Positions 2,256 to 53,200 of a stretch of 64,000 nt of DNA are shown here, one piece after another. Position 1 is the stretch's first letter; each line of letters opens with the position of its first letter. The notes beneath the pieces are model-generated. The model was given only the letters and a program-made list of their open reading frames with translations, ran no database searches and had not been told where the DNA came from. A program made the translations under genes and the position numbers. The stretch comes from a virus (Duplodnaviria; Heunggongvirae; Uroviricota; Caudoviricetes). The stretch is from the IMG/VR virus record IMGVR_UViG_3300009149_000021. The stretch is one strand, 5' to 3'.

Positions 2256-3426
2256 AGTCCCAAGAGTATAAATTAACGCCACCACGACCGTCGTGGTGCT
2301 AACGAAATTTGAGAAGGGGGAGAGGCCCGTAACGTTAAGGTGTAGTCTTCTTAACAGGAAGTAACCCTAACATGCCACTGCTCCCCCTAAAAGTGAAGCC
2401 TGAATAATGGGAAGTACGCCACCACTTCCTATGAAACTTTTAACTGCATGAGATGAGAGCATTTCATCCTGCAAACGCCGTCTCATAGCGAAATAATTGT
2501 CAGGTCAAAAATTAGGTGTACATTGGTTTTAATTGTTCATACACCATCAATAATCGCATACAGCTAATCCAAGTGTTCGTCTGCATCCAAAAGATCCACA
2601 AACTTTCGTTTGACACAACCAGCATAATAATTTGCTCTTTTTATTATACGGTGTAATCAGGACAATTAGCACTTGGAAATTACCATAAATGACCTCTACC
2701 CCTGCCATTTCTGGGGAGTATTCATTATTCAGACTAATTATTAATTGGACAGCTTTTGTAACGAAGATTAATCAACTTGCTTGACCGCTGTCCATAATTG
2801 TTGGTGGAGGCGAGGGGACATTGTTGTTAGCTGCATTTTTTTGATAAACATTATATGCAGATCGGACTGTCGCATCATCCCTAATGAGGGAGTCCTCTCG
2901 CTCAGTCTCTCACGGTGAGATAAATGAATCTCTTCCGCCCTGTCGCCTGTGCCCAGGCTTCCAAGTCAATCAGAGAGGATTTAGTGCTCGCATATTACTA
3001 TGCGGCTCAACCCAATACATCGATTGAACCCCTGTCCAGAGCATCTTACTCATAGCCGGATACCACAATCTTCTTCACAGATTTAATCTTAAAACTCTAA
3101 ACTCCCTGTGACCGGATTTTTGAGTCAGCATCAGATTAATTTTCGTCCAGAAATTATCTAAATCATTTCCAGCTTATCTGTGTAGTGTTACGCCCAATCC
3201 AAATCCCACAGTTAATTTGGTTGAACGAGCGGCTTACGCCGCCATTTCTAATTCAGAATAGTCTGCGATTAGTTTTAAAGGTGAGAATTTTTAACGGTGA
3301 TTCCTCAACACCGGATTGCATCCAATTACTTTCTAACCCCTGTCGAAACCATTACGCCCCCACATTTTAACGAAAAATATTCATCTACATTAAATTTATA
3401 TATGTAGTTTTACTCAATTAAAAAAT

Positions 3427-5419: not shown

Positions 5420-5764
5420 AAAAAACTCCGTCTATAAAATATTTTTATCTATAAAAAAATTATTATTTTCTAAATCAGAAAAAGGGAGAAAATCTAAATT
5501 AAATAGACTTTCTCCCTCTCAAACATAAACCAGTTTATCTGTTGCTGGTGAAAACTGGACAACACCCAATAAGATAAATGAAAAGAGACTCATTCGTCAG
5601 AGTGATTCAGATAATTATGGGATCTGTAAAACCACCGCTTTAATTTCGAGCCAAAACTGGTAAAAGCCGAATTGTGTGTTTCCTAACACATTATTCATTA
5701 TAGAAGTAACTCTGATCGACCACTACTTTTCAAAAATCCACGTTTCTGTTACTAGTTGCAATTA

Positions 5765-6232: not shown

Positions 6233-6865
6233 CTACGCTTTCCATTCAATCCACCACATTGTTTCCCCTGTCATGTTTAAACACTTCCACTGGCACCCTT
6301 CATCGAATCCTTTTTTATACATGTGCCAATGACTAAAAAACCATTGCTTTGGTTTATACTGTTGCAATAGATAACTTAATGCTTTCCTCGAAAAATCATA
6401 TCCATAATCATTTTTAATTTCAAACTCTGTAGGACATGTGTGTGAAATCATTACATCTATCTTTAATTTTGTATCTAATTCTTCAATTTCCCCATTACTA
6501 ATAACTTCTTCTGGAAACCAATCGACTCCCATTTTTCTCATATATCTATCAATCGAATGTGCTCCTCCAAAAAACATAAATGTTTTTCCTAGGATTTCCA
6601 TTGTCGAGCCGCGCTTCATATAAAAGACATTGGGATGTATTTCATTGTTATCTAATTTTCCCAGAGACCAGTGATCTTCGTGATTCCCATCACAGAAAAA
6701 GATTTTAGTATCTTTATTTTTCAATCTTCCAATATCATACTGTTTCAATAATGGATAATATCCAAAGTCACCAGTCGATATTAATATGTCTGGTTTTCTT
6801 TTATTTATAAAAATATTTAGATATTCCCACCATGCATGCACATCACCTATTATCAGAATTTTCAT
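6233..6865 (-). CDS. calcineurin-like metallophosphoesterase
   Basis: GDVH ... GDF ... GNHE motifs in order. Confidence 0.7.
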   Translation of the reverse strand: MKILIIGDVHAWWEYLNIFINKRKPDILISTGDFGYYPLLKQYDIGRLKNKDTKIFFCDGNHEDHWSLGKLDNNEIHPNVFYMKRGSTMEILGKTFMFFGGAHSIDRYMRKMGVDWFPEEVISNGEIEELDTKLKIDVMISHTCPTEFEIKNDYGYDFSRKALSYLLQQYKPKQWFFSHWHMYKKGFDEGCQWKCLNMTGETMWWIEWKA

Positions 6866-6990
6866 CTTTCTTTATCTCATTACCATTTTCATCAAACCAA
6901 ATAACTTTCCATCTAGTCCACCAATTGCCATCATCGTTATACCCACAATCCTCCAACCACAACTGAAAATCGAATTCTGGCCATCCACCT

Positions 6991-7770
6991 CTAGAAGTCA
7001 AACACCTGCCCCTTCTTCACAAATCCAAGAAATCCATCTACTTCTGGAGTGAAATTATCTGGAGCTTGATCATCATAATGAACCAACCACATTTTTGATT
7101 TGGTTTCTTCTGGCAATTCTCTTCTCAAGTCATCATAATGTGCATGGACTCTAGACTTAATAAATTTTCCATCTTTACTCACCAACGTTTCACAATCATG
7201 AATTATTATATCAGACATATTATAAAAATCGTGTATCTGTTGTGGTTGATGTTGGGTATCTGCTGTCATGAAAATTGTTTTCCCATTTACAGATACTAGA
7301 CATCCAAAACATGGTACATAAGCATAGCCATCCATAACGTGACACATCTGAACTGGTCTAAATGTCGCCCCTTCCCATTCAAATGTTTCATTAATTTCAA
7401 TTGGTTTGACATCAAAATAATCTCTTAAACTTAGAATCTTCCCTTGGACGGATTTCATTCCCTGTCTAAATGTTGCCCATATATTATCTTCCATATGTGA
7501 CATACAATATAGATTTGGTCTTTCCTGAGTTGGATCGAAATATTTGGCAAATCCCATCCATTCGAGACCAAGCATGTGATCCCCATGATAGTGACTGATA
7601 TAAATATCATCAACATCTTTCGCACTCATGCCTTGCTCATTTAATGCGTAAGCAAAAGATAACCCACAATCGAATAACAATTTTCTCCCAGAATCACTTA
7701 TGAAGAGAAAGTTTGTTTGCCAATTTTTCATTGAAAAGTATGTTCCAACTCCTATTGCCATCAGTTTCAT
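6991..7770 (-). CDS. metallo-beta-lactamase-fold hydrolase (RNase Z/PhnP-like)
   Basis: ISHYHGDHMLGL = HxHxDH MBL motif; sits next to the tRNA cluster. Confidence 0.6.
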   Translation of the reverse strand: MKLMAIGVGTYFSMKNWQTNFLFISDSGRKLLFDCGLSFAYALNEQGMSAKDVDDIYISHYHGDHMLGLEWMGFAKYFDPTQERPNLYCMSHMEDNIWATFRQGMKSVQGKILSLRDYFDVKPIEINETFEWEGATFRPVQMCHVMDGYAYVPCFGCLVSVNGKTIFMTADTQHQPQQIHDFYNMSDIIIHDCETLVSKDGKFIKSRVHAHYDDLRRELPEETKSKMWLVHYDDQAPDNFTPEVDGFLGFVKKGQVFDF

Positions 7771-7802
7771 TTTTTTATTTTCCTCTTATTTGTTTTGATG
7801 AG

Positions 7803-7873
7803 GCCAGATGGATTTTAACCATCGTCTCCGGCATCCTCGCGCGGTATCCTAAACACTAGACGATAGCCTCATA
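7803..7873 (-). ncRNA. non-canonical tRNA-like element X1
   Basis: 7-bp acceptor-like pairing GAGGCTA/TGGCCTC and T-like arm GATGG-TTAAAAT-CCATC; D/anticodon arms do not fold canonically; no CCA. Confidence 0.25.
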
Positions 7874-8328: not shown

Positions 8329-8410
8329 AATCTAGCAAGATTTTTTCTTGCTTTAATTAGTTTTTTAGATTAATCTTCCGAAAAATCTTAGCTTTAGAAA
8401 TATAAAAAAC

Positions 8411-8540
8411 AAAGAGACTTATATGAAAAAGTATTTTAATTGGGTGATGTTGGATTTGAACCAACCACTTTTTGTCTATTCAACAAATATTCTACCATCT
8501 GAATTAATCTCCGAAGTAACTCTTTCTACCACTGCTTTGT
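8411..8540 (-). ncRNA. tRNA-like repeat unit A (candidate Y-RNA-like/YrlA-type ncRNA)
   Basis: Minus strand carries the conserved AGCAGTGGTAGAAAGAGTTACTTC (D-arm-like) motif plus T-arm GTTGG-TTCAAAT-CCAAC, but no complementary acceptor stem; ends with CATATAAGTCTCTTT shared with the other units. Confidence 0.4.
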
Positions 8541-8549
8541 TTTAATAGT

Positions 8550-8626
8550 TGGTCGGGATAGCAGGAGTTGAACCTGCGACCTTTCGGACCCAAACCGAAC
8601 GCCCTACCAGACTGAGCTATACCCCG
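8550..8626 (-). tRNA. tRNA-Pro (anticodon UGG), CCA encoded
   Basis: CGGGGTA-TA-GCTC..GGGC-TTCGG-TTTGGGT-CCGAA..GCAGG-TTCAACT-CCTGC-TATCCCG-A-CCA. Confidence 0.8.
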
Positions 8627-8631
8627 ATAAT

Positions 8632-8832
8632 TTATTTAAAAATTTTTATTTTTGTCCATTTAATACTTTTAATGAAAATCAAATACGACCAAATGGCAGG
8701 CCAAAACAGAAATAATATAATAGAAAAAATTAGTGTATCTTGATAACCAGCATTATACGAAAAAATGTCAAAACTCAATACGCTAATAATACTTACTGCT
8801 AAATACAAAACAAACACATATACAGTTACCAT
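8632..8832 (-). CDS. small hydrophobic membrane protein (ORF-track N-terminus overlaps tRNA-Asn; internal Met start used)
   Basis: Hydrophobic stretch VYVFVLYLAVSIISVL and IILFLFWPAIWSYLIF; the first 37 aa of the 8632..8943 ORF translate a tRNA. Confidence 0.3.
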   Translation of the reverse strand: MVTVYVFVLYLAVSIISVLSFDIFSYNAGYQDTLIFSIILFLFWPAIWSYLIFIKSIKWTKIKIFK

Positions 8833-8861
8833 TGTATTTACCAACTCCTTCAAAAATAAAA

Positions 8862-8939
8862 TGGCTGCTGGGGAGGGACTTGAACCCACGACATCCTGAT
8901 TAACAGTCAGGCGCTCTAAACCAACTGAGCTACCCAGCA
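8862..8939 (-). tRNA. tRNA-Asn (anticodon GUU), CCA encoded
   Basis: TGCTGGG-TA-GCTC-AGTTGGTTTA-GAGC-CCTGA-CTGTTAA-TCAGG..GTGGG-TTCAAGT-CCCTC-CCCAGCA-G-CCA. Confidence 0.75.
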
Positions 8940-8986
8940 CCACAAATTATTAATAAATTTTATAACGATTTCTTCTTACTTTTGTT

Positions 8987-10720
8987 TTATTGTGTGTTTC
9001 CAAACGTTTCTGTCTCGATTTGGAAATATATTTTCTTTCTTCTTTTGGTTTTTTCCTGTTTTACAACAGGTTTATTTCTATCAGGATAACTATTACCAGA
9101 AGAAGTATTATTGAAGATATCGTTAACTTTTGCGGCAAATTGAATTATCCCCTCAGACCATCCACCAAGAATAAATGTTCTTTCATAATTCTCAGGAAGA
9201 AGAGAATCTTCATATCCCGCAATCTGACATAGGAATACGTTAACATTTCTATTAACCTTATTCCTATATTCTTTAACTAATTTAGGAACATCAATATAAT
9301 TGGATGTGCTTCTTAGCCATCTATAGTTGTTGTAATCTGATGGATCAAGTCCATACAATCCACCATGACCAGCTTGCATATCAGAATAGACGAATATGTT
9401 GTCCCAGTGTACTTTATTTTTTATAGCATCACTGAACGCCAACCATATTCCATTTTCTGTTGCACCACCAATTTCTGAACCAACTTCTTCAACAGTTTTA
9501 AGTTGATCGAAAATTGAAGATTTTTTCCTTATAGGAATCATCTTCAGTCTATCGCCAAACACACCAACAATACCTTCGTCGGAAACCATCCCAGTTATAA
9601 CACCCATCAAATTTCCAATATGGGAAACTGTGGATGTTCCATAAACGCTTAGATGTCCACTCTGTGCTGATCCAGAATTATCAACCAGGATCAAATTTCT
9701 TCCTTCTATTCTTGGAAGATTTCCCATTGATCGAGTCAGACATTCTTCCAAACCATCGAGAATAACAGAAGAAGCTATGTGTTCCACTATTCTGTATGCT
9801 GAATAATATCTAAAAGGAATTTGTCTCCCATCTGCTGCAGTTCCGACAAGTTTGTCCAACCAATATTTATGGTGGACTTTATTCTCAATGAAATTTCTGA
9901 TGTTTCTCAGAAGAGCCATGTGTCCCATGACATCAATACAATCTTTCCATGGTCTTCCTGCTGATCTCATTGATTCCCATGTTTCTCTTCCATCATCATT
10001 GAGTTTGAGTTTATCATCCAAAAGCTTCAATGTATTATCACCGAATGCACCAGCTAAACGAATAACATCAACAGTCTTGACATCTCTGTTCTCCATCCTA
10101 TATTTCGATAAGGTGTATTCGTTTGCATTTTTCAGAAAGTCAGACCATGATCTTTTCAAACTGTTTGGAATTGGTTTTCCATATGCGGCTAATTGATATG
10201 ATAATCCAGTGGCAGGTTCATCGCCTCTCTTGATTATGTGTTTTGCATATTTCCTTATAAGGCCAGTACCCTTAACCTTTGGATGGTTAGCTGCTCTTAT
10301 CAATATTGCTTGTGGTGTGACCCTCATATTATCAATATTTCTCAGATCACATGCTATCTTAAGAGTTTCCTCAGCATTATATCTCAATGCTTCATCAATG
10401 CATTTTTCGATTGTCTTGACTGGAGTTAAATTTCTCCATTCATAATCATCAATTGCATTGAGGGTATCTCTTAAATATTCTCTAGCTTTATCAGATATCC
10501 CAGATCTCCTAAGACCTACATCAGATCTTTTTCTTTTATCTTTCCTATCTGATTTATAATATTGTGGTTCACCGAAGAAACATGAAGCAGCAACAACACT
10601 CAATCTCAATAATGGATTATTAATATCAAATGAAGTTCCTCCCATGAAATTCTTATGAGCCGAATCATAAATCTTTTTCTCTGCTAAACTTTCATTCCTT
10701 TTCTTGTTTAAATAACTCAT
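8987..10720 (-). CDS. rsr: Ro60/TROVE-domain protein with C-terminal vWA (MIDAS) domain; Rsr-like
   Basis: N-terminal LLRLSVVAASCFFGEPQYY matches the Ro60 signature RFLCFGSEGGTYY; C-terminal LILVDNSGSAQSG is a DxSGS MIDAS motif. Established Ro60 = TROVE + vWA architecture. AAAGGAG RBS upstream of ATG. Confidence 0.7.
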   Translation of the reverse strand: MSYLNKKRNESLAEKKIYDSAHKNFMGGTSFDINNPLLRLSVVAASCFFGEPQYYKSDRKDKRKRSDVGLRRSGISDKAREYLRDTLNAIDDYEWRNLTPVKTIEKCIDEALRYNAEETLKIACDLRNIDNMRVTPQAILIRAANHPKVKGTGLIRKYAKHIIKRGDEPATGLSYQLAAYGKPIPNSLKRSWSDFLKNANEYTLSKYRMENRDVKTVDVIRLAGAFGDNTLKLLDDKLKLNDDGRETWESMRSAGRPWKDCIDVMGHMALLRNIRNFIENKVHHKYWLDKLVGTAADGRQIPFRYYSAYRIVEHIASSVILDGLEECLTRSMGNLPRIEGRNLILVDNSGSAQSGHLSVYGTSTVSHIGNLMGVITGMVSDEGIVGVFGDRLKMIPIRKKSSIFDQLKTVEEVGSEIGGATENGIWLAFSDAIKNKVHWDNIFVYSDMQAGHGGLYGLDPSDYNNYRWLRSTSNYIDVPKLVKEYRNKVNRNVNVFLCQIAGYEDSLLPENYERTFILGGWSEGIIQFAAKVNDIFNNTSSGNSYPDRNKPVVKQEKTKRRKKIYFQIETETFGNTQ

Positions 10721-10750
10721 TTTTCACTCCTTTAAAATGTTTTAAAGAGA

Positions 10751-10791
10751 AACGTAAAAAGAGGCATAGCAATATATAATCACTATGCCTC
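10751..10791 (-). terminator. rho-independent terminator (minus strand) between the Y-RNA-like repeats and rsr
   Basis: GAGGCATAG-(13 nt)-CTATGCCTC 9-bp stem followed by TTTTTACGTTTCTCTTT on the minus strand. Confidence 0.5.
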
Positions 10792-10804
10792 ATGAAAAGT
10801 AATG

Positions 10805-10870
10805 AGGAGACTTATATGCAAGGGTATTTTTTCATAAACCATTGAAGTAACCCATTGCTACCACTGCCCC
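10805..10870 (-). ncRNA. tRNA-like repeat unit B (short form)
   Basis: GGCAGTGGTAGCAATGGGTTACTTCAATGG...ACCCTTGCATATAAGTCTCC; GGGT/ACCC is a compensatory change relative to GAGT/ACTC in unit C1. Confidence 0.4.
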
Positions 10871-10879
10871 ATTAAAAAC

Positions 10880-10948
10880 ATGAGAGAGACTTATATGAAA
10901 GAGTATTTTTTCACCATTGAAGTAACTCTTTCTTCCACTACTCTCATA
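10880..10948 (-). ncRNA. tRNA-like repeat unit C1 (short form)
   Basis: GAGTAGTGGAAGAAAGAGTTACTTCAATGGTGAAAAAATACTCTTTCATATAAGTCTCTC; 7-bp stem AAAGAGT/ACTCTTT. Confidence 0.4.
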
Positions 10949-10957
10949 AAATATACC

Positions 10958-11102
10958 AAGAGACTTAATAAGAAAGGTGTTTTCTTTTGCCATCGCTCTA
11001 ACCATGCTGAGCTACATGACACCTTTGAGGGCGGCATGATGGGATTTGAACCCACGACATATGGTTCCAATAATTGAAGTAACCTTTCTAACCACTGCTC
11101 GG
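10958..11102 (-). ncRNA. tRNA-like repeat unit C2 (long form with T-arm and authentic-looking D-arm)
   Basis: GAGCAGTGGTTAGAAAGGTTACTTCAAT ... GTGGG-TTCAAAT-CCCAT ... GTAGCTCAGCATGGTTAGAGC; no acceptor pairing, so not a canonical tRNA. Confidence 0.4.
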
Positions 11103-11111
11103 TTTTGATAT

Positions 11112-11235
11112 ATAAAGGAAGAGACTAGGCGATAGGGTTTTTTAATTCAGCGGGATTTGAACCCACATTAGTCAATTTACAAGATTGATTTTATACCAGA
11201 TTGAAGTAACCCATATCTATCACTGCTTCCTATTT
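11112..11235 (-). ncRNA. tRNA-like repeat unit C3 (long form with T-arm)
   Basis: GAAGCAGTGATAGATATGGGTTACTTCAAT ... GTGGG-TTCAAAT-CCCGC. Confidence 0.4.
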
Positions 11236-11263
11236 AATTTAACTTTGTTCTCTTTTTCTTAAG

Positions 11264-12291: not shown

Positions 12292-14253
12292 TTAAGTTCC
12301 TCCTATAATCTCCATTAATTGATCTTCACTTATAATCACAACTCCAAGTGCTTTCGCCTTATCCAACTTGGAACCACAGTTTTCACCAGCCACCAAATAA
12401 TTTATACTTTTTGCCACACTGCCTTTTACTATACCACCATTGTTTTCAATTAAATTAGAAAAAAAGGATCTTGGTTTTGTTAATGTTCCTGTTATAACAA
12501 ATGTCTTATCTATTAATTTATTATTTTCAGTAATAATATATTGGGTGTTTATTCTTTTTATTTTTAGTTTTTCGATCATATCTTTATTTTTTTCATCTCT
12601 GAAAAAATTAAAAATATTTTCTGATATTATTGATCCAACATCTTCTATATTTTTCAATTCATCCAAATCAGCATTTATCAGATTGTCGATAGTTGCGTAT
12701 TTTTTTACAAGTTTCTTTGACAGTGTTCTCCCAACTCCCTCAATACCTAGCCCGCTAATCAATCTCCTCAATTCATTATCTTTACTTTTTTCTATATTTT
12801 CCAAGAGACGCTCAGCACTTCTTTCAGCATATCCATCCATTAATAATAAATCGGCTTCTGTCATATAATAAATATCTGAAATATCTTTGATTATATTTTT
12901 TTCAACTAGCTGATCTATAATAGATTCTCCGAAATGCTCAATATTCATATGGTCTCTACTGACAAAATGTTCAATGGATTTTTTAAGTTTTCCTTTACAA
13001 GAATCACCCTTACATTTTATGAATGGTCCAAATCTTATTGTGTTACTATTACATACGGGACATTTTGTTGGAAACTCAATCTGTTTGGTTTGTGTTCGTT
13101 TATCTAAAGCAACACTTGTTATATGTGGTATAACTTCAGCAGCACGTTCAACATTGACATAATCACCGATTTCCAATTTCAATCTTTCTATTTCATCGAA
13201 ATTGGCCAATGTACATCTCTTTACAACAACTCCACCTATATTCACTGGCTCCAATTCGGCAACAGGAGTTATTATTCCCGTTCTTCCAACTTGAAACAAA
13301 ACATCAATAACTTTAGTTATCTTTTGTGGTGTTTTGAACTTATAAGCTATCGCCCATTTGGGGGATTTGCTGGAACGTCCAGCTATATTTTGTTGTGTAA
13401 AATTGTTCACTTTGATCACTATGCCATCTATTTCGTAATTTAATTTTGTTCTCTCTGTATTCCAGTAATCACAAAACATCATTATTTCTTTAATATCTTT
13501 TGTAACTACTTTATTTGGATTTATTTTAAATCCAAATTCTTCTAACTTATTATACATCTCACTCATTGTTTCCACATCCAACCCATATCCAAATGAATGA
13601 ACGTACATATCCAAATTTCTCTTAGCAACCATTGTTGGATCTAATTGTCGCATAGATCCGGCTGCTGCATTTCTTGTATTTGCAAATGGTTTCTCTCTAT
13701 CCTCATTTAGTTTATTAAATGAAGATAATGGCATGAATACTTCCCCACGAATATTCAATTCTTCTTTATATGGTATTTCCAATGGAATTGATTTTATTCT
13801 TTTTATATTCTCAGTAATATCTTCACCAATCGATCCATCACCTCTAGTTGATCCTCTTATAAATTTTCCATCTTTATATAATAAATCAACCGAAAGACCA
13901 TCAATTTTTAATTCGCAAATATATTCATGGTGATGTGCAGCTAAATCATCTTCCATTTTATTTAAAAAATTCTCCACTTCATCTTGATTATATGTATTAT
14001 CTAATGATAAGAGTGGAATTTTATGTTCAACTTTTTTGAAGCATTCAAGTGGCTCACCACCTACTCGTCTAGACGGGGATGTATCCGAATCTAAATCTGG
14101 ATATAATCCTTCCATAGTAATTAATTTTCTCATAACTGTATCATATTCTAGATCTGATATAGTTGGTTTATCTTTTACGTAATATTCATAATTCCATTTA
14201 TTGATTTTTGCCCTGAGCATTTCAATAATTTCTTTTGGAGTGAATTCGTGCAT
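12292..14253 (-). CDS. ligA: NAD+-dependent DNA ligase (LigA)
   Basis: Adenylation motif ELKIDGLSV (KxDG); Cys4 zinc finger CPVCNS...CKGDSC; C-terminal BRCT-like segment; length 653 aa typical of LigA. Confidence 0.9.
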   Translation of the reverse strand: MHEFTPKEIIEMLRAKINKWNYEYYVKDKPTISDLEYDTVMRKLITMEGLYPDLDSDTSPSRRVGGEPLECFKKVEHKIPLLSLDNTYNQDEVENFLNKMEDDLAAHHHEYICELKIDGLSVDLLYKDGKFIRGSTRGDGSIGEDITENIKRIKSIPLEIPYKEELNIRGEVFMPLSSFNKLNEDREKPFANTRNAAAGSMRQLDPTMVAKRNLDMYVHSFGYGLDVETMSEMYNKLEEFGFKINPNKVVTKDIKEIMMFCDYWNTERTKLNYEIDGIVIKVNNFTQQNIAGRSSKSPKWAIAYKFKTPQKITKVIDVLFQVGRTGIITPVAELEPVNIGGVVVKRCTLANFDEIERLKLEIGDYVNVERAAEVIPHITSVALDKRTQTKQIEFPTKCPVCNSNTIRFGPFIKCKGDSCKGKLKKSIEHFVSRDHMNIEHFGESIIDQLVEKNIIKDISDIYYMTEADLLLMDGYAERSAERLLENIEKSKDNELRRLISGLGIEGVGRTLSKKLVKKYATIDNLINADLDELKNIEDVGSIISENIFNFFRDEKNKDMIEKLKIKRINTQYIITENNKLIDKTFVITGTLTKPRSFFSNLIENNGGIVKGSVAKSINYLVAGENCGSKLDKAKALGVVIISEDQLMEIIGGT

Positions 14254-20256: not shown

Positions 20257-22059
20257 TTATAAAATACTTATTTTTTCTGTTTCTTCTTTTACAACGTCTA
20301 CTTTTACTGGTTCCGATTTACTCAAGATACCATAAACCATCATTGTATTTTTTGGAATCTCGATTGGTTTTTTACCATCGTTCCATATTACAATTCTGAG
20401 TTCATCTTCAAAGGATTCTGTCACAACATTTGGTTTTGTCAGAACATGGACATCTTCCAATGTATCCAATGCACTCCTTGGTTCAAAATGCATATGATAT
20501 CCTTTCTCAATGCTACATCTCCACCCAGTCCTTACAAATTTTGTTTCGCCTGGATTTATAATATTTTGTTCAATTGAAAAGAATCCAAATCCCGGAGATT
20601 TTCTTTCTTTGTATGATGGTACTATTAAATCTATCTCAGCAATATCAGGACACGCGATAAAATTTATTGTCGTGTCTGGTGTGTTATTGTAGTTGTATGT
20701 GCTATAACCACGATTGTAGTTGTTTGCCGCATAGTTGTTTGCCGCGTAGTTGTTTGATGCAGCTGATGCATTCGTTCCGCTTGTGGTTGTTGGTTTTGTA
20801 ACAGTTGACTCAGTCGTAGTCGGTTCGGTTTCTGTTGACTCAGTTGTGACTGGTTTGGTTTCTTCTGGTTTTGTGTCAGTCTCTATTGATATCAAAACAA
20901 AATCTTTACCATCAACAACTTTTATTTTATCCGAATCTCGTTTAACTTCTTCATATTTTTCTAATGCATGCCTGCTTTGTTCACTGAGCGGCTCCGCATT
21001 CGCGATATAGATGGTTGCTAAAATTTCATAAAAATTTGATTTAAATAACCACGTTGCAGCATTATTCAATCTTTTTATTACTGGTTTATCATATCCATCA
21101 GCACCCGCATCTATGAACAATCCCTTTCCGAGTTTGCAAAGATATTCTCCTAATTGACGTTCCTCAATTGGTTTTCCATTCTTGGCAAAAATAGAATTGA
21201 TTCTATTTAGATTTACATATTTATCAAAAAGATGACTTAGCAGAACTTCTGCTTTTGCATCTTCAGTTTTTATATCTTCGGTTGTTTCATTTCCCATTGC
21301 TTTCTCCATAAGATTTAATTCTGGCGTATCCACTGTTTTTTGGTTTGTTATTTTTTTAAATATTTCTCTCACAAGTTTAAAAATCATTCTTTCACCCTTA
21401 AATGTTTTATTATGCACAATAGGTCTAAAAACAATTCCTCCAATTAAATTATTTTCTAGTGAAATTTCATGCAACATCAATGATATAGCAGAAATCTTTT
21501 TGTCTGGTGTCAATTTTAATATATCTTCCATTTTTCCGGATCTTATCACTGGTACAGTTTTCATCTCTAGCATTCTTGCCAATTCTTTAACTCTGTCCCA
21601 TCCAACAAAAATTCCATTTATTGATATATCGTGTATCCACCAGTGATTTTGTGGAGAATAAATAACCATAGAATCCATTGGAATTCCAAATTTTGTTGGG
21701 TTGCCGGCTGGGTGTTTAAAATTAAAGAATCCACCAAACAGCACTCCATATATTTGTACCTTTACTTTTTCTGATCTACAAAATTCAATTATTTTTTTAT
21801 AATGAATAGATACAACATCCCCAGCACAACCATAAAAGCTTTCATCTGCAAAACCATATTTTCCACCAATTGCCAAATTGCCATCAGGATCACATAATAT
21901 GGAAACACAACTTCCTCTTATTTTTTCCGTCGCAACCCACTCATGACTATTTCCATTTGAGGCTTCGATGTCTGCTATAACTGTTGGTGATAATTCCTGT
22001 ATTCCATAATATCTTCGAAATACATCTTTTAGTTTTTCTGGTTGTAGAATATAAGTCAT
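20257..22059 (-). CDS. RNA-ligase-like nucleotidyltransferase (Rnl2-type motifs) fused via Thr/Pro-rich linker to a dUTPase-fold domain
   Basis: N-terminus: ATEKIRGS (motif I KxxG), GGIVFRP (motif IV-like), FKLVRE (motif V-like). Linker: TKPEETKPVTTESTETEPTTT then NNYAANNYAANNY. C-terminus: AEIDL, PRSALD and VIWNDG match dUTPase motifs 1, 2 and 3-tail; motif 3 core is TESFE instead of IDSDY. Confidence 0.5.
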   Translation of the reverse strand: MTYILQPEKLKDVFRRYYGIQELSPTVIADIEASNGNSHEWVATEKIRGSCVSILCDPDGNLAIGGKYGFADESFYGCAGDVVSIHYKKIIEFCRSEKVKVQIYGVLFGGFFNFKHPAGNPTKFGIPMDSMVIYSPQNHWWIHDISINGIFVGWDRVKELARMLEMKTVPVIRSGKMEDILKLTPDKKISAISLMLHEISLENNLIGGIVFRPIVHNKTFKGERMIFKLVREIFKKITNQKTVDTPELNLMEKAMGNETTEDIKTEDAKAEVLLSHLFDKYVNLNRINSIFAKNGKPIEERQLGEYLCKLGKGLFIDAGADGYDKPVIKRLNNAATWLFKSNFYEILATIYIANAEPLSEQSRHALEKYEEVKRDSDKIKVVDGKDFVLISIETDTKPEETKPVTTESTETEPTTTESTVTKPTTTSGTNASAASNNYAANNYAANNYNRGYSTYNYNNTPDTTINFIACPDIAEIDLIVPSYKERKSPGFGFFSIEQNIINPGETKFVRTGWRCSIEKGYHMHFEPRSALDTLEDVHVLTKPNVVTESFEDELRIVIWNDGKKPIEIPKNTMMVYGILSKSEPVKVDVVKEETEKISIL

Positions 22060-23539: not shown

Positions 23540-24892
23540 TCATTTTATCATTTCAAGATATTTAAATGCATCGTTTTTATCAACGATTTCACCTTCCAAT
23601 GTTTTTTCAATTAATTCATTCTTTATATTTTTTATCCATGGTCCTGGTTCAAAACAAGAATAGAATTCCATTATTTCATTTCCATCGAGTGGTGATTTTA
23701 TTTCAGATGGTTTTTCTGGAATATACTCACATTCCAATATACTATCAAAAAATTCTGTATTTTTATCCAGTTCTATATCGGATTTTCCCAATAGTATTAG
23801 TGGTTGAAGAATCTCTACATGCTTTCTAATGAATCTTGAAAATAATCTTCTATTGGGTTTATTATCACATGCTTCCTTGAGATGCTTCACATCCATATGG
23901 CTTGCAACGAGTTTAGAAATGAAATTGGTTTCAACTCTTTTCATTTTTAAATCGTCACATATAATTCTGGCCATCGCTCCACCATAATACGCATGGGCTG
24001 TAAATTTATACATTCCTTCTTGTCCACTACGAGTTAGTAATTTTCCAGTATCATGTATAAGAGCGGCGAATCTTATTAAAACATCTGTCGTCAACTTTGA
24101 TACATTTTCCAAAACATCAATAGTATGCTCATATACATCTTTCCTATGCCACGCACTTGATTGAGAAAAATATTTCATGGATTGGACGGGCGGCACAATA
24201 TATTTTAATAACCCCGACCACTCAAGATGATATATAGCATTCCTTATATTTTCACTTGGACATCCAAGAATTTTAAATAATTCATCTCGAATCCTTTCTT
24301 TAGAAATTGACGCTATATTTCTACAATTTTTTGATATAGTCCTTGAGAGACTTTCATCTATATTGAATCCGAGTTGTGCCCTGAATCTCATTGCTCTCAA
24401 CATCCGCAACCAATCCTCTTCCATTCTTTTTTCGGGATCACCAATGGCTCTGATAATCTTTCTTTTAATATCACTCTGTCCATCAAAATAATCAATTATT
24501 TCACCAGTAATTGGATCCAATGCCAGTGCATTCATTGTGAAGTCTCGTCGTTTACAATCTTCTTCCAATGTTCTTGCTACTTCCACATCAGCATGTCTCC
24601 CATCACAATTGTGATCAGTCCTAAATGTTGTTATCTCATACATTTCATTTGGACCACCATCCTTTATTACTATTGTCAGAGTGAGATGTTTCAACCCAGT
24701 ATCTTTAATTGTTATTCGGTCATCATTATATTTTTCAAATATTTCTTTTATTTGATCGGGCATCGCAGATGTCGTAAAGTCATAATCTTTTGGGGTTCTT
24801 CCTAATATATTATCTCTCACACAACCACCAACCAAATAAATCTCATGTCCTGCGTCTTTAATTATCTTCGCAATTGTCTGTATCGAGTTCAC
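23540..24892 (-). CDS. cca: tRNA nucleotidyltransferase (CCA-adding enzyme) with HD domain
   Basis: Head-domain GGCVRD..DYDF; HD motif AALIHDTGK; 450 aa. Confidence 0.8.
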   Translation of the reverse strand: MNSIQTIAKIIKDAGHEIYLVGGCVRDNILGRTPKDYDFTTSAMPDQIKEIFEKYNDDRITIKDTGLKHLTLTIVIKDGGPNEMYEITTFRTDHNCDGRHADVEVARTLEEDCKRRDFTMNALALDPITGEIIDYFDGQSDIKRKIIRAIGDPEKRMEEDWLRMLRAMRFRAQLGFNIDESLSRTISKNCRNIASISKERIRDELFKILGCPSENIRNAIYHLEWSGLLKYIVPPVQSMKYFSQSSAWHRKDVYEHTIDVLENVSKLTTDVLIRFAALIHDTGKLLTRSGQEGMYKFTAHAYYGGAMARIICDDLKMKRVETNFISKLVASHMDVKHLKEACDNKPNRRLFSRFIRKHVEILQPLILLGKSDIELDKNTEFFDSILECEYIPEKPSEIKSPLDGNEIMEFYSCFEPGPWIKNIKNELIEKTLEGEIVDKNDAFKYLEMIK

Positions 24893-32922: not shown

Positions 32923-34662
32923 TTAGAAATTCAATCCTATTGAATTTAAATAGTATCTAAATAGTTGTAGTGTTGCTGGTTCGCTTTTCATTTCAACCGT
33001 TTTCGCATAACCAGTATTAAATAAATTTCTAAGTAAACTAATTTTGCTTCCAAGATCATCGGATTTTATATTTACTTCTTTTAAATTTTCTATTGCATCA
33101 TATGCTATCATTGCCCAAACTTCCATCTCGCCAATTCTCTGTGCTCCCTGGCCAGATGCGGGTTGGATTGTTTTCCTCGTGTAGTTTCCAACTGTTCTTG
33201 CTTTGAGCTTTCCATCTATAGTATGTATAAGTTTCATTAAAAACATATTACCAACCGCAACAGGTCCAATCGTTCTTCCCTGTAGTTTCAGAGGATAATA
33301 TTGTTTTGTCGCAGTATAATCCATGAATAAATCCAGATTATCTTTTGTGAAACTTTCGAATGGTGGTTGTATAAGAACCAAATCTTCAATTAATTTTTTA
33401 TCCATTCCATGTCTTTTAATTAAATTTGCTACTTCCTTGCTATACCATTTGTCTTTAGATGTATCTATATGATTGGTTATACCTGCCAAAGCTTTCATGG
33501 CGTATTTAGGATCTTCATCAAATTTCTTCGATAGTTTTTGTTTTAGGAAATGCATACCAAGTCCAGCGTGCAATTCAAACAGCTGGCCAATATTCATACG
33601 AGAAATTATACTCAGCGATCCTAATATAACTTCCAAAGGTTGTCCCCACGGAGTTACAGGCATTTTTTTATCTGGAACAATAATACTTATAACACCTTTA
33701 TTACCATGACGATTGGAAAATTTGTCCCCAACCCTTGTGTATTTTTTATAGGTGTATTTTATTTTCATTATCATACCATCAATTCTCACACCTTTATCAT
33801 TGATATGACCTTTGAATTTATGAATATCACAATTCATAGCATCAATTGAATTATTCAGATCGCTATCTGAAATTTTATCTTTCAATTTTATCATTTCACC
33901 ATGAATATGTTTTGAATTTTCTAGAACTGATACAATATAATGATTGAACTCACTGTAGTTTTTGCACCAATCATTTATATAGAATTTCACATCTGTTACA
34001 GTAATATCATCTTTCAATGTTATTGGTCTCGGGGAATCACATAAGAATCTTGGGTTGCTTGAAACATATTTTATTAGAAGGACTGGATCATTCTTTTTTA
34101 CAATATCACCAATTTTCGGAATCGGTTTATAATCTTTTCTATCTAATGAAAGCAGAACTTCATTCATATTAAGACTTATAATCAATTCATCTTCAGCAAG
34201 TGATGTGAATTTTTCAGCAGCTGATTCGGAAAAAACTATAGAATCCTCATGACAATAACCAAAGTATTCCATGTACCCGACTAACATATTTCTTCCATAC
34301 TTTATATTTCCATTTTCAGTACTAATATGTTCGTAGATGATATCACCAGTTTTAAATTCTTCATCGGTTTCATAATAACAGTTCAGATACCAATGCATTT
34401 TAGATGTCTCAAAAGTTTCATCCTCATATTGCAAAATCAGTAATTGGTTATTCTTAAACAAAACCTTTCCTGATTTCTCAGCAATCTTAGTATATAAACC
34501 AAGATGTGAAATGTTATCATAACCAGTACATATCAAAGGAATTTCTGGATTTTCCAAAATCAATGACTGCTTCATTTGAGAAGCAGCCATTTGACAACGG
34601 GTAGGGTCATCATTTTGAACAAATGGTATTAGACAAATGGGAAATGTCGTAAAGTCAGACAT
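32923..34662 (-). CDS. multisubunit RNA polymerase beta subunit, C-terminal half
   Basis: LIPFVQNDDPTRCQMAASQMKQ (beta motif IPFLEHDDANRALMGxNMQRQ); GDKFSNRHGNKGVIS (GDKxxxRHGNKGVxS). Own AAGGAG RBS 11 nt after the stop of the N-half gene. Confidence 0.85.
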   Translation of the reverse strand: MSDFTTFPICLIPFVQNDDPTRCQMAASQMKQSLILENPEIPLICTGYDNISHLGLYTKIAEKSGKVLFKNNQLLILQYEDETFETSKMHWYLNCYYETDEEFKTGDIIYEHISTENGNIKYGRNMLVGYMEYFGYCHEDSIVFSESAAEKFTSLAEDELIISLNMNEVLLSLDRKDYKPIPKIGDIVKKNDPVLLIKYVSSNPRFLCDSPRPITLKDDITVTDVKFYINDWCKNYSEFNHYIVSVLENSKHIHGEMIKLKDKISDSDLNNSIDAMNCDIHKFKGHINDKGVRIDGMIMKIKYTYKKYTRVGDKFSNRHGNKGVISIIVPDKKMPVTPWGQPLEVILGSLSIISRMNIGQLFELHAGLGMHFLKQKLSKKFDEDPKYAMKALAGITNHIDTSKDKWYSKEVANLIKRHGMDKKLIEDLVLIQPPFESFTKDNLDLFMDYTATKQYYPLKLQGRTIGPVAVGNMFLMKLIHTIDGKLKARTVGNYTRKTIQPASGQGAQRIGEMEVWAMIAYDAIENLKEVNIKSDDLGSKISLLRNLFNTGYAKTVEMKSEPATLQLFRYYLNSIGLNF

Positions 34663-34673
34663 ATTTTCTCCTT

Positions 34674-35942
34674 TTAATCAATAAGTCCCTCCTCATCTTC
34701 AGTAAACAAAATATTTCGTTTTTCTTCGATAAGCTTCGAGTTGATTGTTAAAAAATTAACAATACCACATGCCTGCCTATCTGCTGTTAATATCGGATCT
34801 AAATTCATATAATAACTCTCATGTATATTTCTCAGATCAGTTGGCATCGATTTTTTACTCAGCCCCTGTGGTCCAGAATATGTTCCTTTCATAGACTCTC
34901 CTATGCTGTGTATAATAGTAACACCGTGATCCGCTAAATGGTGCATTTCTGGCATCTTACCAGAAAGATAATTTGTTATATTTACGGTTTTGTTCTTGTC
35001 AACCTTATATGAACTTCTTGATATCAAAAACGAAAGTATTTCTGAAAATAAAGGTCCGAGAATATATTGAGAAAGTAAAACATCTTTTCTCACTAGGTTT
35101 CCGCGCTCTTGTGTGTGTTCATCTCTATTTAAAAACCTATGAAATAATTCCTGTGGTATTGATGGTTGGGTCAATTTCAATGATATAAAGACATCCGATT
35201 GTTTAACATAATCAAAATACTCTATCAAATTGAACTTTTTATATTTAAACGAATTAGACATCTCCCACCAGAATTCCTTGGAATTGAATTTTACTTTATT
35301 GTTTATTTTCTGATCTAGAAAATTTTCAATGAGCATATCGAACGATTCATTTTCAGGATCAATCTTTTCGATTACTATGCGCTCTGATATTTTCTCTGTT
35401 ACACTTTTAGATATACTAATCAATCTATGGTTACATTTTTCCAAAAACCATTCTAGATCATTATAATAACACATCATATTTCCCATGTGTGTTTTCTTAT
35501 CCGCAATACCAGTCCATCCCTTGTTTGCGTTAAAATGGATTGTAAGAATAGTACCAATCATCCTAAAGATATCTTTTGATACAACAAATGTATCCAATAA
35601 TTGAAATAACGGATGTCGATAAACCCCGTTTATAACGAATTCCAAAGTGTGTTTTTCCGGCACAGGATAAACTATTTCTAAATTATAGTTAAGAACTTTG
35701 GTGTTTGATTGATTATTATATTTTATATTTATTTTTAATGATTTTTCCAAAGTACTTTTTATAGTTTTGACCCTTCTTTTTGATGTGGAACTCTCATCAA
35801 GTTCCACATCAACTATTCCAGGAATCAATTTAATTTTTTCAATAATCAATTTTATTGTTTTTTCTATGTTATCACGAATTTCTTCTCTCTTATATGCAAA
35901 CACTTTATCAACAAATGCAGGATTTCTAAAATTATAAATCAT
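34674..35942 (-). CDS. multisubunit RNA polymerase beta subunit, N-terminal half
   Basis: FVINGVYR (beta GxFxINGxER) and DLRNIHESYY...DPILTADRQACGIVNFL (beta HPTHYGRxCPIETPEGxNxGLI region). Confidence 0.7.
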   Translation of the reverse strand: MIYNFRNPAFVDKVFAYKREEIRDNIEKTIKLIIEKIKLIPGIVDVELDESSTSKRRVKTIKSTLEKSLKINIKYNNQSNTKVLNYNLEIVYPVPEKHTLEFVINGVYRHPLFQLLDTFVVSKDIFRMIGTILTIHFNANKGWTGIADKKTHMGNMMCYYNDLEWFLEKCNHRLISISKSVTEKISERIVIEKIDPENESFDMLIENFLDQKINNKVKFNSKEFWWEMSNSFKYKKFNLIEYFDYVKQSDVFISLKLTQPSIPQELFHRFLNRDEHTQERGNLVRKDVLLSQYILGPLFSEILSFLISRSSYKVDKNKTVNITNYLSGKMPEMHHLADHGVTIIHSIGESMKGTYSGPQGLSKKSMPTDLRNIHESYYMNLDPILTADRQACGIVNFLTINSKLIEEKRNILFTEDEEGLID

Positions 35943-35961
35943 AAAATCACCTCCATATGAC

Positions 35962-50249: not shown

Positions 50250-53200
50250 TTATGAACATTTGGAATATCCACAACTGAGACATTCCATGCAACCTTCCTG
50301 GATGGAAAGTGATTTCTCTTTACATTTGGGACAAATCTGCATCCCCTCTGTTGTAACATCATCCGTATCGGTAAACGAATATTTTAACATTTTTGCTATA
50401 GCATCAACCACGGATGTCACTGGAATTGGTTTTTTGGTAAACTTATGCCACATGACATCATTGGATGCAATATTTTCTAATTGATTTATTATCTTTCCAA
50501 GTGGTATATGGTAAGACAAACAGAGCGAAATCAATCTTCCGATTGCTTCAGTATAACATCCCAGCTCACTTCCAGATTTTCCAACATTCAAAAATATCTC
50601 CAATGGTATTCCCTCTTTAGAATTGACAGTTATAAATGCATCGTATTCTGGGAATTTGAATTTTTCAGTGAAACCAAAAAGTTTCTCTGGTCTGGAAACA
50701 TCTTTTAATTCAATTTTTGGTTTCTCTTTTGAAACACCACACAATATTCCTTCTCTTTTACAACCGGAACGATATACAGTTATTCCCTTACAACCGGACT
50801 TCCATGCAAGCATATAAAGTTCTTTCACATTTTCTACTGTGGTATGATTACCAAGATTAACAGTAGAAGAAATACTATTATCTATATATTTCTGAATCAA
50901 ACCTTGCAGTTTAACTCGCTCTTTCCAATTAACTTCATATGCTTGTGGAAAGAAATTTTTTATTTCTTCATCAGATTCAACAATCCTCATTTCCTTGGCA
51001 TATTTTATTGCATTGTGCCAGATTTCGAACGTTTCTTGTTTTCCTGATATATTGGTCTTCCTCGTATATGTCCTCATGAATACTGGTTCTATCCCAGAAC
51101 TACAATTAGAATAAATCATTTTATTATTTTTAATATTATAAATTCCACCACCGATAATTGATAATGAACCAGTTGGTGCAATTGTATTTACAGTGACATT
51201 TGCAATCGGTTTATCTTTCGGAATATTAAATTTTTCAAAAAATGGTGTACTATAATATTTTTCAGTATCAAAATCATTAACAATTATTCCATGCTCGGTA
51301 GCCAAATTTTGTGATGTTATATAAGATGTAGTTCTAAATTCTTCGAGAAGTTCTTTTAGAAATTTTGTTGTATCAGCTCCCATGTTGTATCCAAATCTCA
51401 TCAACCCCAATACATCACCCAATGCAGAAATTCCCAAACCAATTCTTCTATATTTTTCTGCCTTCTCGCGAATTTCTGGAAGCGCAAACATGTCATACTT
51501 CAACTCATAATCTAGAACGGCATTCAAGGCTAAAATTCCAACTCTGATGGTGTTCCTGAAACCTTCAAAGTTGAATGTGTTATCCACATAAAATTTATCA
51601 AGCATTACTGCACCAAGTACGCACTGCTCATATTTTGCCATTGAAATTTCACCACACTGCCTTTGATATATATTATAGTGTGTAACAGCACTTTTTGACT
51701 CTTTTATTTTTCCCAACACCGTTCCAACTATATGATTATCATCAACTGTAATATTATAAACATCCTCATAACCATCAAATTCAACAGAAACAACTTTATG
51801 ATTAACATTTTCAACAACATCTTCTTTGATTGCATTCCAAGAAAATGATCCTTCAGACCATCTATACATACCACTTGGACGATATTCTCGTTTAATACGA
51901 TTAATTAAACCATCATATTTACTATACTTTTCATTGTATGGTATCTTAAAAGCATCTTCAAAATATATTTTCCATTCTTCAAGACTAGGAAATCTATCCA
52001 ATCTAATAGAATAATCTATAAATTCATTATATATTTTGTGAAATTTATCCGTTGAAACTTTATTTGCTTTTAATAAATATTTTTCCGATTGATATAATGC
52101 AGCACATGTACTTGAACAAAATGCCCTTTCACGTTTTGAATATTCGACCCAAAAGTTAGAATTACATTTTTCACAAACTCTCAAACAATAACATTTCCCA
52201 TCAGCCACATCAAACTTAATAACCAAATCCGAATTATCTTTATTTTGAATATACCAACGATATGCAATAATTGAATGATACCTTTGTATCGACCATTCTT
52301 TTTTATAACCAAATATCTCAAAGTTTAATTGATCAATTAAATCATATGTTTTATATAATTTGCTATTTCTACAATAACCTTTTTCACCAGCATGTTTTCT
52401 CCATTCAGATTTTGTTATTGGTCCATTGTATCCATTTAAACATTCTTTAATTTGATCTAGATGCTCATCTTTTGAAACATCGATAGCTTTTCCATTTTTA
52501 AATCCAGATGTACTTTCTGACATTTTTTTACGATATTTTTGTCTATTTTCTTCAGTTGTTTCATTCCACCAATTTTGCATTGGATTATTTTTATTCATGT
52601 GTAATCTGTTATGTTCCGAATGCTTCATCAATCTAAGATTCTCAATTAAATTATTTCTAGGATTTCCATCTATATGGTGAACAACCATTTTATTTTCAGT
52701 ATTGAAAATTTTGTTATCCAAATCATTATAAAATTGATAAACATACCTGTGTTCAATCTTAGAAAATTTAACATTATCTATTTTTGAAATATTCCAATAA
52801 GAAGTTTTTTTATTAAAACTTTTAGTCGAAACAAACAAACTATCTCCAGCAGTTAAATCCTTAGCTTCACACTCAGATAGATTTCTCAAAATAAACTTAT
52901 GATTCTCAGTACATCTAACAACAGAACCATCGTCCAAAGTCACCTTCAATATCTTTTTATTTCTACCAGTCAATCTAGGATTTCTACCTGTTTTAATTTC
53001 AACAAAACCTGTTTCTTTATTTAATGAATACACTGGAACATCTTTTTCTTCATCTACTAATTGTTTAATTGGGACCATACCCCTGCCATCAGCAACAGAA
53101 ATCAACATATCACCAGTTAAACATGGATTTACACCTTCTGGTGTGCTCTCTGGATGGAAACAACCTGGATTATAATTTACCATTCTATCTTTAAATATTA

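Follow-up and report, generated by a model that had tools for sequence, protein, structure and literature searches.

The stem of a Y RNA binds the outside of the ring formed by the protein Ro60, which stabilizes it, whereas misfolded RNA is bound within the ring's central cavity. In Deinococcus and Salmonella it is a Y RNA that links Rsr, a protein of the Ro60 family, to PNPase. Y RNAs are thought to be modular, such that one part docks on Ro60 and another recruits a partner. In bacteria, studies have dealt with only one or two Y RNAs per species, and many genomes that encode Ro60 have no detectable Y RNA. Here we analyze a 64,000-nucleotide stretch of DNA from a virus of the Caudoviricetes (IMG/VR record IMGVR_UViG_3300009149_000021; the whole stretch is referred to below as the window) that contains an open reading frame (ORF) for a putative Ro60/Rsr-family protein of 577 residues and seven short, structured elements (units 1–7), all of them on the strand of the Ro60 gene, the minus strand. 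Comparison of sequences together with structural modeling leads us to conclude, with a probability of about 0.82, that the DNA is from a jumbo phage which has a multisubunit RNA polymerase of its own and which codes for a ring protein of the Ro60/Rsr type together with seven Y RNAs cognate to it.

The Y RNAs described from bacteria carry toward their 5′ end the sequence GNCGAAN0-1G, which is a proposed contact for Rsr, carry YUAY after the second stem, and are encoded next to rsr (PMC4201824). In the class called YrlA, a domain that resembles transfer RNA (tRNA) has the T arm first, then an acceptor-like hairpin and last the D arm. In Mycobacterium smegmatis, YrlA and a second RNA, YrlB, are processed from a single precursor (PMC4201824). 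Few YrlA RNAs were found in the delta-proteobacteria, which then included Sorangium and Polyangium (Chen 2014, PMC4201824). A phage Ro60 with Y-like RNAs is also already known, including in Bacillus phage G (PMC4201824; phiLo 2025, PMC12135203). In particular, the Ro60 of Thermus phage phiLo assembles in vitro with its RNAs and the host PNPase into a ternary complex (PMC12135203), and TROVE proteins with a tRNA-like partner appear in a review of jumbo phages (PMC7824862).

The ORF in the window (positions 8987–10720, minus strand) is predicted to encode a divergent Ro60/Rsr-family protein consisting of a TROVE HEAT-repeat ring and a C-terminal vWA domain with the MIDAS (metal-ion-dependent adhesion site) motif DNSGS at residues 347–351. 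Searching Pfam with the single 577-residue sequence returned nothing at E < 0.01. The protein matched the PHROG_850 family, annotated as 'RNA-binding protein', at 6.6e-34, and in a single-sequence phmmer search of PDB it matched the phiLo Ro60 (9KOP, 9L5Y) at 6.6e-9; with a family profile made from 26 homologs the phiLo protein was matched at 1.2e-26. Altogether 2593 database proteins match at E ≤ 1e-20, and a precomputed match to the TROVE family PF05731 is present in most of the best 120 homologs. Three motifs are invariant in the 26 homologs, namely SCFFGEP.YY, the MIDAS sequence DNSGSA, and SDMQAGHGGLYG; these include the two signatures (SCFFGEPQYY and DNSGS, both present here) from which an initial annotation of this DNA, made from the letters alone, had proposed a Ro60/Rsr protein. 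The AlphaFold model of the protein (predicted local distance difference test 77; predicted template modeling score 0.77) was compared with PDB using Foldseek, and the best 13 matches are all Ro60/Rsr structures (phiLo, Xenopus, human and Deinococcus), with E values of 8e-16 to 5e-10 over some 500–550 alignment columns; isolated vWA domains rank next. Because profile, homolog, motif and fold evidence agree, we assign the ORF to the Ro60/Rsr family as a divergent member, despite a match to the Pfam TROVE model that stays below threshold, and the proposal of the initial annotation is borne out. (In the profile comparison that it had put forward as a check, Pfam TROVE stayed below threshold, and the family profile matched the phiLo Ro60.)

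The seven units share one architecture. From 5′ to 3′ each consists of stem 1, a loop strand of the form G-Y-AGUGG, stem 2, UACUUC, a variable head, stem 2′, an AAGUCU loop strand, and stem 1′. Stem 1, which the two ends of the RNA form, comprises 5–7 base pairs (bp) and is unlike in sequence from unit to unit, with complementarity kept (GGAAG/CUUCC, CGAG/CUUG, GAGAG/CUCUC, UGGGG/CCUCA, CAAAG/CUUUG, GAAAAG/CUUUUC and GGGGGAG/CUCCCCC). It would be separated from stem 2 by an asymmetric loop with 5′ G-(C/U)-A-G-U-G-G on one side and 3′ A-A-G-U-C-U on the other. Within this loop the 5′ strand contains (C/U)AGUGG, and the 3′ strand ends in AAGUCU or a variant of it (UAGUCU in unit 1, GAGUCU in unit 6, GGGCCU in unit 7). 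Stem 2 comprises 8–10 bp, its 5′ strand ending in GU and its 3′ strand beginning with AC, and UACUUC is present in all seven units. In unit 1, for example, GGAAG is followed by CAGUGAUA, stem 2 and UACUUC, and on the 3′ side GCCUAGUCU precedes CUUCC; unit 6 has GAAAAG and UAGUGGUC opposite GAAUGAGUCU and CUUUUC; and unit 7 runs from GGGGGAG through CAGUGGCA, stem 2 and UACUUC-CUGUUAA-GAAG to CUCCCCC. Minimum-free-energy folds show the two-helix arrangement in six of the seven units, and in the sixth unit, for which the input was cut before stem 1′, only stem 2 appears. The fold of unit 3, which has stem 1, the internal loop and stem 2, has z = -2.4, and that of unit 7 has z = -2.2.

Five of these elements had been placed correctly on the minus strand by the initial annotation (unit 1, 11117–11230; unit 2, 10956–11102; unit 3, 10882–10945; unit 4, 10803–10871; unit 5, 8410–8539). 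Its count was incomplete, as a search with the shared boxes found two further units (unit 6, 5581–5730; unit 7, 2318–2385), giving seven in the window. The change in stem 2 that it had described as compensatory is present (GAGU/ACUC in unit 3 versus GGGU/ACCC in unit 4), as are the GGTTCAAATCC T-loops in the three units for which it had named them. What it had called a D-arm-like box is no D arm, and instead appears to be the 5′ strand of a two-helix terminal module, which we presume to be the Ro-binding part of the RNA.

On this module sit heads of several kinds: one permuted tRNA mimic, two unpermuted tRNA-like bodies, three minimal hairpins, and one unclassified domain of 105 nucleotides. 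The permuted head belongs to unit 2, in which a T arm is followed by an acceptor-like hairpin (CAUGCCGCC/GGUGUCAUG) and then a D arm (GCUCAGCAUGGUUAGAGC). Unit 2 is the only Rfam YrlA match (29.7 bits, E 0.0016, over the full model, positions 1–114), and in that alignment the YrlA order is seen as GUGGGUUCAAAUCCCAU, CAUGCC..GUCAUG and UAGCUCAGCAUGGUUAGAGC. Thus far the earlier suggestion of a YrlA-type RNA holds, for the order of the arms and not for the Rfam score, which has to reach 69 bits. The acceptor-like stem of unit 2 is closed by a loop and is 7–9 bp long, so that the statement that every unit lacks a pairable acceptor stem fails for unit 2 and in part for unit 5, where five of seven positions pair.

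The two unpermuted heads are those of units 1 and 5. Unit 5 has D, anticodon-like and T arms in the form of a cloverleaf, and the Rfam tRNA model scores 43.8 bits at 8441–8513, above the gathering score of 29; it has no CCA, has G33, and has two mismatches in the acceptor stem. The head of unit 1 is a reduced form, a mini-tRNA with a 4-bp UUCA/UGAA stem, no D stem, an anticodon-like arm with the loop CUUGUAA, and the T arm GUGGGUUCAAAUCCCGC; it scores 28.6 bits, just below the gathering score, and likewise has no CCA. ARAGORN calls neither as a tRNA, and the combination expected of one (a 7-bp acceptor stem, a 3′ CCA and U33) is found in neither, whereas CCA is encoded by all seven of the tRNAs that ARAGORN calls in the window. 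The Rfam scan suggested earlier thus gave one score above threshold (tRNA, unit 5) and two below it (YrlA, unit 2; tRNA, unit 1). In units 3, 4 and 7 the head is reduced to a UUC(A)/(U)GAA hairpin (UUCA-AUGG-UGAA in unit 3; unit 7 is a GC-rich version of this minimal form), and the 105-nucleotide head of unit 6 matches no Rfam family. Both tRNA-like arrangements recur elsewhere: permuted heads are present in at least five other loci, and an unpermuted head in another phage (locus L029, 7780–7896) has D, anticodon and T arms placed directly on stem 2 with no acceptor stem.

Judged by architecture and motif homology, the units are Y RNAs, with the qualification that unit 2 is not a YrlA member by the Rfam threshold. 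They are 64–150 nucleotides long with ends that pair into a stem (Y RNAs are defined as roughly 80–130 nucleotides). The YUAY feature is present in all seven as the UUAC within G-UUAC-UUC. At the boundary of stem 1 and the loop, the family to which the units belong has G-N-A-G-Y-G-R, in the same position as the published GNCGAAN0-1G; the position is homologous, and the sequence has diverged in the window.

Statistical support for the module came from pattern searches and from covariance models. The expression AGYGR, 7–14 nucleotides, TACTTC, which asks for no pairing, occurs at seven sites on the minus strand of the window and at no site on the plus strand (the mean in shuffled sequence is 1.1). 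A covariance model (R1) had as its seed 28 short units, of which three came from the window, one came from phage G and the others were taken from IMG/VR loci; stem 1 was trimmed in them to about 5–6 bp. Run on the window, R1 picked up the seven units, each on the minus strand, with no further match below E = 1. A second model (R2) was built from 101 sequences of other genomes only, which avoids circularity. In a search of both strands of the 64 kb, R2 recovered exactly the seven units (unit 1, 32.5 bits, E 5.4e-6; unit 2, 39.1 bits, E 1e-7; unit 3, 60.5 bits, E 2.4e-13; unit 4, 45.4 bits, E 2.1e-9; unit 5, 43.0 bits, E 9e-9; unit 6, 39.9 bits, E 6e-8; unit 7, 34.4 bits, E 1.6e-6) and no other site at E ≤ 10, an outcome that supports the earlier proposal by the covariance-model test that it had named. 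With the window sequences left out of the alignment, 89.2% of cells are paired as against 54.3% in shuffles (a second alignment is similar, at 87–89% versus 54–55%), and each of the 14 base pairs varies on both of its sides. The covariation score is 0.845 versus 0.203 in shuffles, with none of 500 shuffles reaching it (0.80–0.85 versus 0.20–0.21 over the two alignments), and it is at most 0.21 when the registers are slid by 1–3 columns. In the internal loop, pairing as a bulged helix (G:C, bulge, A:U, G:C) is compatible with 80–99% of the sequences. No Rfam 15 family matches the shared module in the window or in the 16 relatives that were scanned.

The module is also linked to TROVE genes in other genomes. 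Related loci were retrieved with an alignment as query (a single-protein query retrieved none), giving 72 IMG/VR and phage loci of the same TROVE clade, which with the window amount to 1.18 Mb, and 80 loci from bacterial genomes. In the phage loci and the window R1 found 121 matches at E ≤ 0.01, six of them window units, and every one lies on the strand of the TROVE gene. At least one match is present in 61 of the 72 phage loci; among the 115 matches in these loci, 87 lie less than 1 kb upstream of the TROVE gene and 22 lie downstream. The bacterial loci, among them the complete genomes of Sorangium and Polyangium, Deinococcus xinjiangensis and members of the Chloroflexota, gave 66 matches in 54 of 80 loci, again all on the strand of the gene and nearly all immediately upstream of it. 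Over the three sources together, 187 of 187 matches agree in strand with the TROVE gene, and 115 of 152 loci are positive. The Y-RNA reading of the initial annotation is therefore supported by the paired ends, the conserved internal loop, the variable head, the covariation and the TROVE linkage in more than 110 loci. Its expectation that a multi-copy array within a tRNA cluster would be unusual is not: arrays of two to four units are common among the phage loci, and arrays near tRNA clusters are common in the clade, the largest being those of the window (seven) and of Bacillus phage G (six or seven). Some relatives have no detectable units. In Desulfovibrio phage 7757 (38.7% identity), there is no R1 match at E ≤ 0.01 in the locus and no cluster of TACTTC upstream of the TROVE gene, and the upstream flank looks coding by eye.

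In three of the loci a tRNA-shaped RNA immediately precedes, on the upstream side, a short unit and the TROVE gene (L116 3640–3790, from Sorangium cellulosum So ce56; L110 3671–3803; L101 3666–3798). It has an acceptor stem (GCCAGAG/CUCUGGC), ACCA, and D and T arms, and Rfam reports it as a 133-nucleotide 'tRNA' of 48 bits. In the place of the anticodon arm is the Ro module in permuted order (stem 2′, a UUCU loop, stem 1′, a loop, stem 1, CAGUGA, stem 2, UACUUC). By its sequence, this form would be a third topology of RNAs with the Ro module, in which the RNA ends lie at the acceptor and not at stem 1.

Returning to the window, units 1–4 form an array that reads on the minus strand from 11230 to 10803 with only 7–15 nucleotides between units, and is followed by a hairpin resembling an intrinsic terminator (10761–10791, minus strand; a 13-bp stem and UUUUU), a ribosome-binding site, the 577-residue ORF, a tRNA-Asn, a small ORF, a tRNA-Pro and unit 5, which starts 6 nucleotides past tRNA-Pro. 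The terminator between array and gene had been noted in the initial annotation, and is confirmed. Relative to the Ro60 gene, four units lie 83–510 nucleotides upstream, one lies 0.45 kb downstream, and two lie 3.3 and 6.6 kb downstream. As units 1–4 are too close for separate promoters and share one terminator, it is likely that they are processed from a single precursor, from which the individual RNAs would probably be cut, a route already demonstrated for YrlA and YrlB of M. smegmatis. Three other assemblies encode an identical protein; the one that was compared has two mismatches in 3.7 kb, and so offers no useful variation.

Several observations weigh against the interpretation that we favor. 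With the single sequence of the protein, the match to Pfam TROVE is partial (E = 0.026, 14.2 bits versus a threshold of 23), and Rsr of D. radiodurans is matched by phmmer against PDB at E 0.22 only. None of the window units has a literal CGAA (they read GCAG or GUAG), so that GNCGAAN0-1G itself is absent; in the family as a whole the published CGAAG stands at that position in 16 of the 121 R1 matches. The YrlA score of unit 2 is far under its gathering score. The alignments used for covariation were fitted with the model, which biases them toward the structure, and the seeds were anchored on TACTTC, so that the invariance of this hexamer is partly a matter of ascertainment; one Sorangium unit reads UCCUUC. 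The positions of the internal loop are too invariant for covariation to test their pairing. Finally, the module could be recognized by a protein other than Ro60.

A different account of the position of the units is that they are cis-acting elements of the TROVE mRNA leader, such as autoregulatory sites or attenuators, and not stable RNAs that act in trans. The 87 of 115 phage-locus matches that lie within 1 kb upstream on the strand of the gene would be expected of such elements, as would the bacterial matches, which mostly lie about 60–250 nucleotides upstream and usually as a single copy, and a terminator after the array is what an attenuator would look like. However, three of the seven window units are found downstream, 0.4–6.6 kb from the gene, with tRNAs around them and the transfer-messenger RNA (tmRNA) gene close by, 22 of the 115 phage-locus matches are likewise downstream, and elaborate tRNA-mimic heads in multi-unit arrays are not readily explained in this way. 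Moreover, Y RNAs that have been characterized also sit just upstream of rsr on the same strand, yet they accumulate as stable RNAs (PMC4201824). We regard the leader explanation as improbable.

It is very unlikely that the units are ordinary or decaying tRNA genes with flanks that serve as shared processing signals, promoters or terminators. Although units 5 and 1 score 43.8 and 28.6 bits with the Rfam tRNA model and lie in a tRNA cluster, nothing in three of the units resembles a tRNA, unit 2 has a circular permutation, ARAGORN calls no unit, the tRNA-like heads lack the CCA that the ARAGORN tRNAs encode, and unit 5 combines G33 with two acceptor mismatches; the flanks, for their part, are two covarying helices that in more than 110 loci are linked to TROVE genes and not to tRNAs. 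Less credible still, and to our minds scarcely tenable, is a coincidental adjacency of the TROVE gene to a mobile repeat or to RNAs of another system, such as one of the type III toxin-antitoxin kind. Such a system would be suggested by the order of repeat array, terminator and protein gene, which resembles that of ToxIN-type loci, were it not that the units are heterogeneous where tandem repeats would be identical, that the linked protein is Ro60-like and no nuclease toxin, that transposase and target-site features are absent, and that linkage to TROVE recurs in phage loci (61 of 72) and in bacterial loci (54 of 80), the strands agreeing completely.

If the phage does encode a Ro60 with cognate Y RNAs, the shared module would dock to the outer face of the ring in the manner of the known Ro–Y RNA complexes, and the variable head on top of the module may select partners or protect the RNA. 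The phage could in this way make several Ro60 ribonucleoproteins (RNPs) with differing partners or targets, and these might degrade, chaperone or hand over for repair structured RNAs, for example tRNAs, in the course of infection. The variety of the heads raises the further possibility that the locus is a library of adaptors, in which one Ro60 ring is served by seven RNAs with one docking module and swapped heads. The module would then be a portable cassette, and the heads would route Ro60 or act as decoys or sensors. We put this forward tentatively and with the odds against it. Some of the heads would on this account be tRNA bodies joined through the acceptor end rather than at the anticodon position. 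If it is true, then, with the Sorangium form included, the module has been grafted repeatedly onto tRNA scaffolds in every circular permutation; the decoys or sensors might be aimed at host defense nucleases that target tRNAs; and the RNPs would feed a phage island of RNA repair and turnover (CCA-adding enzyme, RNA ligase, phosphoesterase and tmRNA).

The window is part of a jumbo-type phage genome. It encodes split homologs of the β and β′ subunits of multisubunit RNA polymerase, topoisomerase II, SbcC, a helicase and ribonucleotide reductase, and every gene in its first 25 kb lies on the minus strand. The β/β′-like genes, a hallmark of jumbo phages, and the ribonucleotide reductase gene are in the stretches 32923–38592 and 50250–53993 (minus strand). 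Within the 1247-residue ribonucleotide reductase is a segment resembling an HNH endonuclease, which may be an intein or a homing element. Near the Ro60 gene are seven ARAGORN tRNAs and a tmRNA, and its neighbors include genes for end healing and sealing of RNA and DNA (6233–7770, 12292–14253, 20257–22059 and 23540–24892, all minus strand): an NAD-dependent DNA ligase, a metallo-β-lactamase-fold hydrolase (Apyc1-like, with an RNase Z-like fold), a calcineurin-like phosphoesterase, an RNA ligase that is fused with a dUTPase-like domain (20257–22059), and a CCA-adding enzyme (23540–24892).

Other noncoding features of the region were observed alongside. The tmRNA (2795–3353, minus strand) scores 74.5 bits with Rfam in a match that breaks off at 3021, within the T loop; the T stem's 3′ half, together with the acceptor and its CCA (UCCCCUCGCCUCCACCA), follows some 215 nucleotides later, near 2795–2812, which suggests an insertion or intron in the T loop, and no Rfam family, intron families included, matches the insertion. 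A tRNA-like gene at 7799–7870 (minus strand; Rfam 43 bits; T loop UUAAAAU) is not called by ARAGORN and, unlike the seven ARAGORN tRNAs, encodes no CCA; it has no Y module. On both sides of unit 7, the stretches 1925–2315 and 2390–2790 (minus strand) are noncoding and contain several GC-rich hairpins (for example GGGAUGGG...CCCAUCCCC) in a genome that is otherwise AT-rich. These hairpins may be further structured RNAs; neither stretch has an Rfam match.

With respect to what was known before, the literature that we searched and the Rfam release contain no account of the two-strand UACUUC module as a family of its own, of its breadth in jumbo phages and Myxococcota, of arrays of up to seven units, or of a genome in which a single module occurs in permuted, unpermuted and headless forms. 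The locus and its relatives supply a natural series, with at least four kinds of head on the same docking module within one genome; with one protein, seven RNAs and heads that can be exchanged, it allows the idea of Y RNAs as modular adaptors to be tested directly. The model also provides candidate Y RNAs beside the Ro60 of this clade in 115 of the 152 loci searched, including those of Sorangium and Polyangium. The locus would, in addition, place Ro60 RNPs within the islands of jumbo phages that are devoted to translation and RNA repair.

In phage CKA15, three highly transcribed RNAs lie upstream of an Rsr-like gene (PMC12282133). We considered this transcript evidence as support for the window units and set it aside as not transferable, because in the related Listeria phage P100, R2 finds nothing in the 47-kb region of the tRNAs and gp165, and gp165 (L167 37571–39091), an Rsr-like virion protein, aligns to the TROVE clade over its vWA part only (hhalign probability 37%). 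If the upstream RNAs of P100-like phages are Y RNAs, they belong to a different family.

YrlA and YrlB of Salmonella Typhimurium and M. smegmatis (RF02553; PMC4201824) resemble the window units in that they adjoin rsr on the same strand and have paired ends, a conserved 5′ motif at the boundary of stem and loop, and YUAY past the second stem. The order of arms in the YrlA head is that of unit 2, and YrlB is a simpler second Y RNA, as are units 3, 4 and 7 here. They differ from the window in number (two RNAs as against seven) and in the loop (GNCGAA as against G-Y-AGUGG); the window in addition has two unpermuted tRNA bodies, and conserves both strands of the module (UACUUC and AAGUCU/UUCU). 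Yrn1 of Deinococcus radiodurans (PMC4201824), compared by its description, is like units 1 and 5 in having the normal order of a D-like arm, an anticodon-like arm and a T arm, and like the window in having a Ro-binding helix of which each strand can be recognized. Yrn1 has no full D arm and a 6-nucleotide 'anticodon' loop, whereas unit 5 is a complete cloverleaf.

Among the phage systems, that of Thermus phage phiLo (phiRo60 with Yrl1 and Yrl2; 9KOP, 9L5Y; PMC12135203) likewise has a phage Ro60 ring with Y-like RNAs just upstream, and its Ro60 is the best match to the window protein, in sequence and in fold, among solved structures. Identity is about 20% only, and the phiLo RNAs were chosen by a CGAA motif, with no tRNA-like heads described. 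Closer is Bacillus phage G, whose gp540 is the nearest annotated relative (40.5% identity over 90% of the protein). As in the window, a tRNA cluster and a tmRNA lie nearby, and the same RNA module is found, in one unit of the YrlA type and in short units that form an array upstream of the gene; the array lies in an unannotated 1-kb gap upstream of gp540, and reads GA-AGCGG, a stem 2 ending in CAGU, UACUUC, and AAUAAUC-UC. The phage G record annotates none of the Y-like units, and in the papers that we read a Y-like RNA of phage G is mentioned (Chen 2014, as cited in PMC12135203) and the array is not. The sixth phage G unit (L001 5781–5935), 2 kb upstream, has a permuted tRNA head with a 7-bp acceptor stem (CGCGGGA/UCCCGCG), ACCA and a 20-nucleotide loop, and its Rfam YrlA score is 36.2 bits only. 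By analogy with what has been reported for YrlA of M. smegmatis, cleavage by RNase P would convert this unit into a two-piece tRNA mimic that ends in CCA. Phage G thus differs from the window in its loop subtype (GA-AGCGG / AAUAAUC-UC), and in the perfect 7-bp acceptor stem and encoded ACCA of its YrlA-type unit. Set beside these relatives, the locus in the window is a system of a known kind, Ro60 with Y RNAs, in an unusually rich form.

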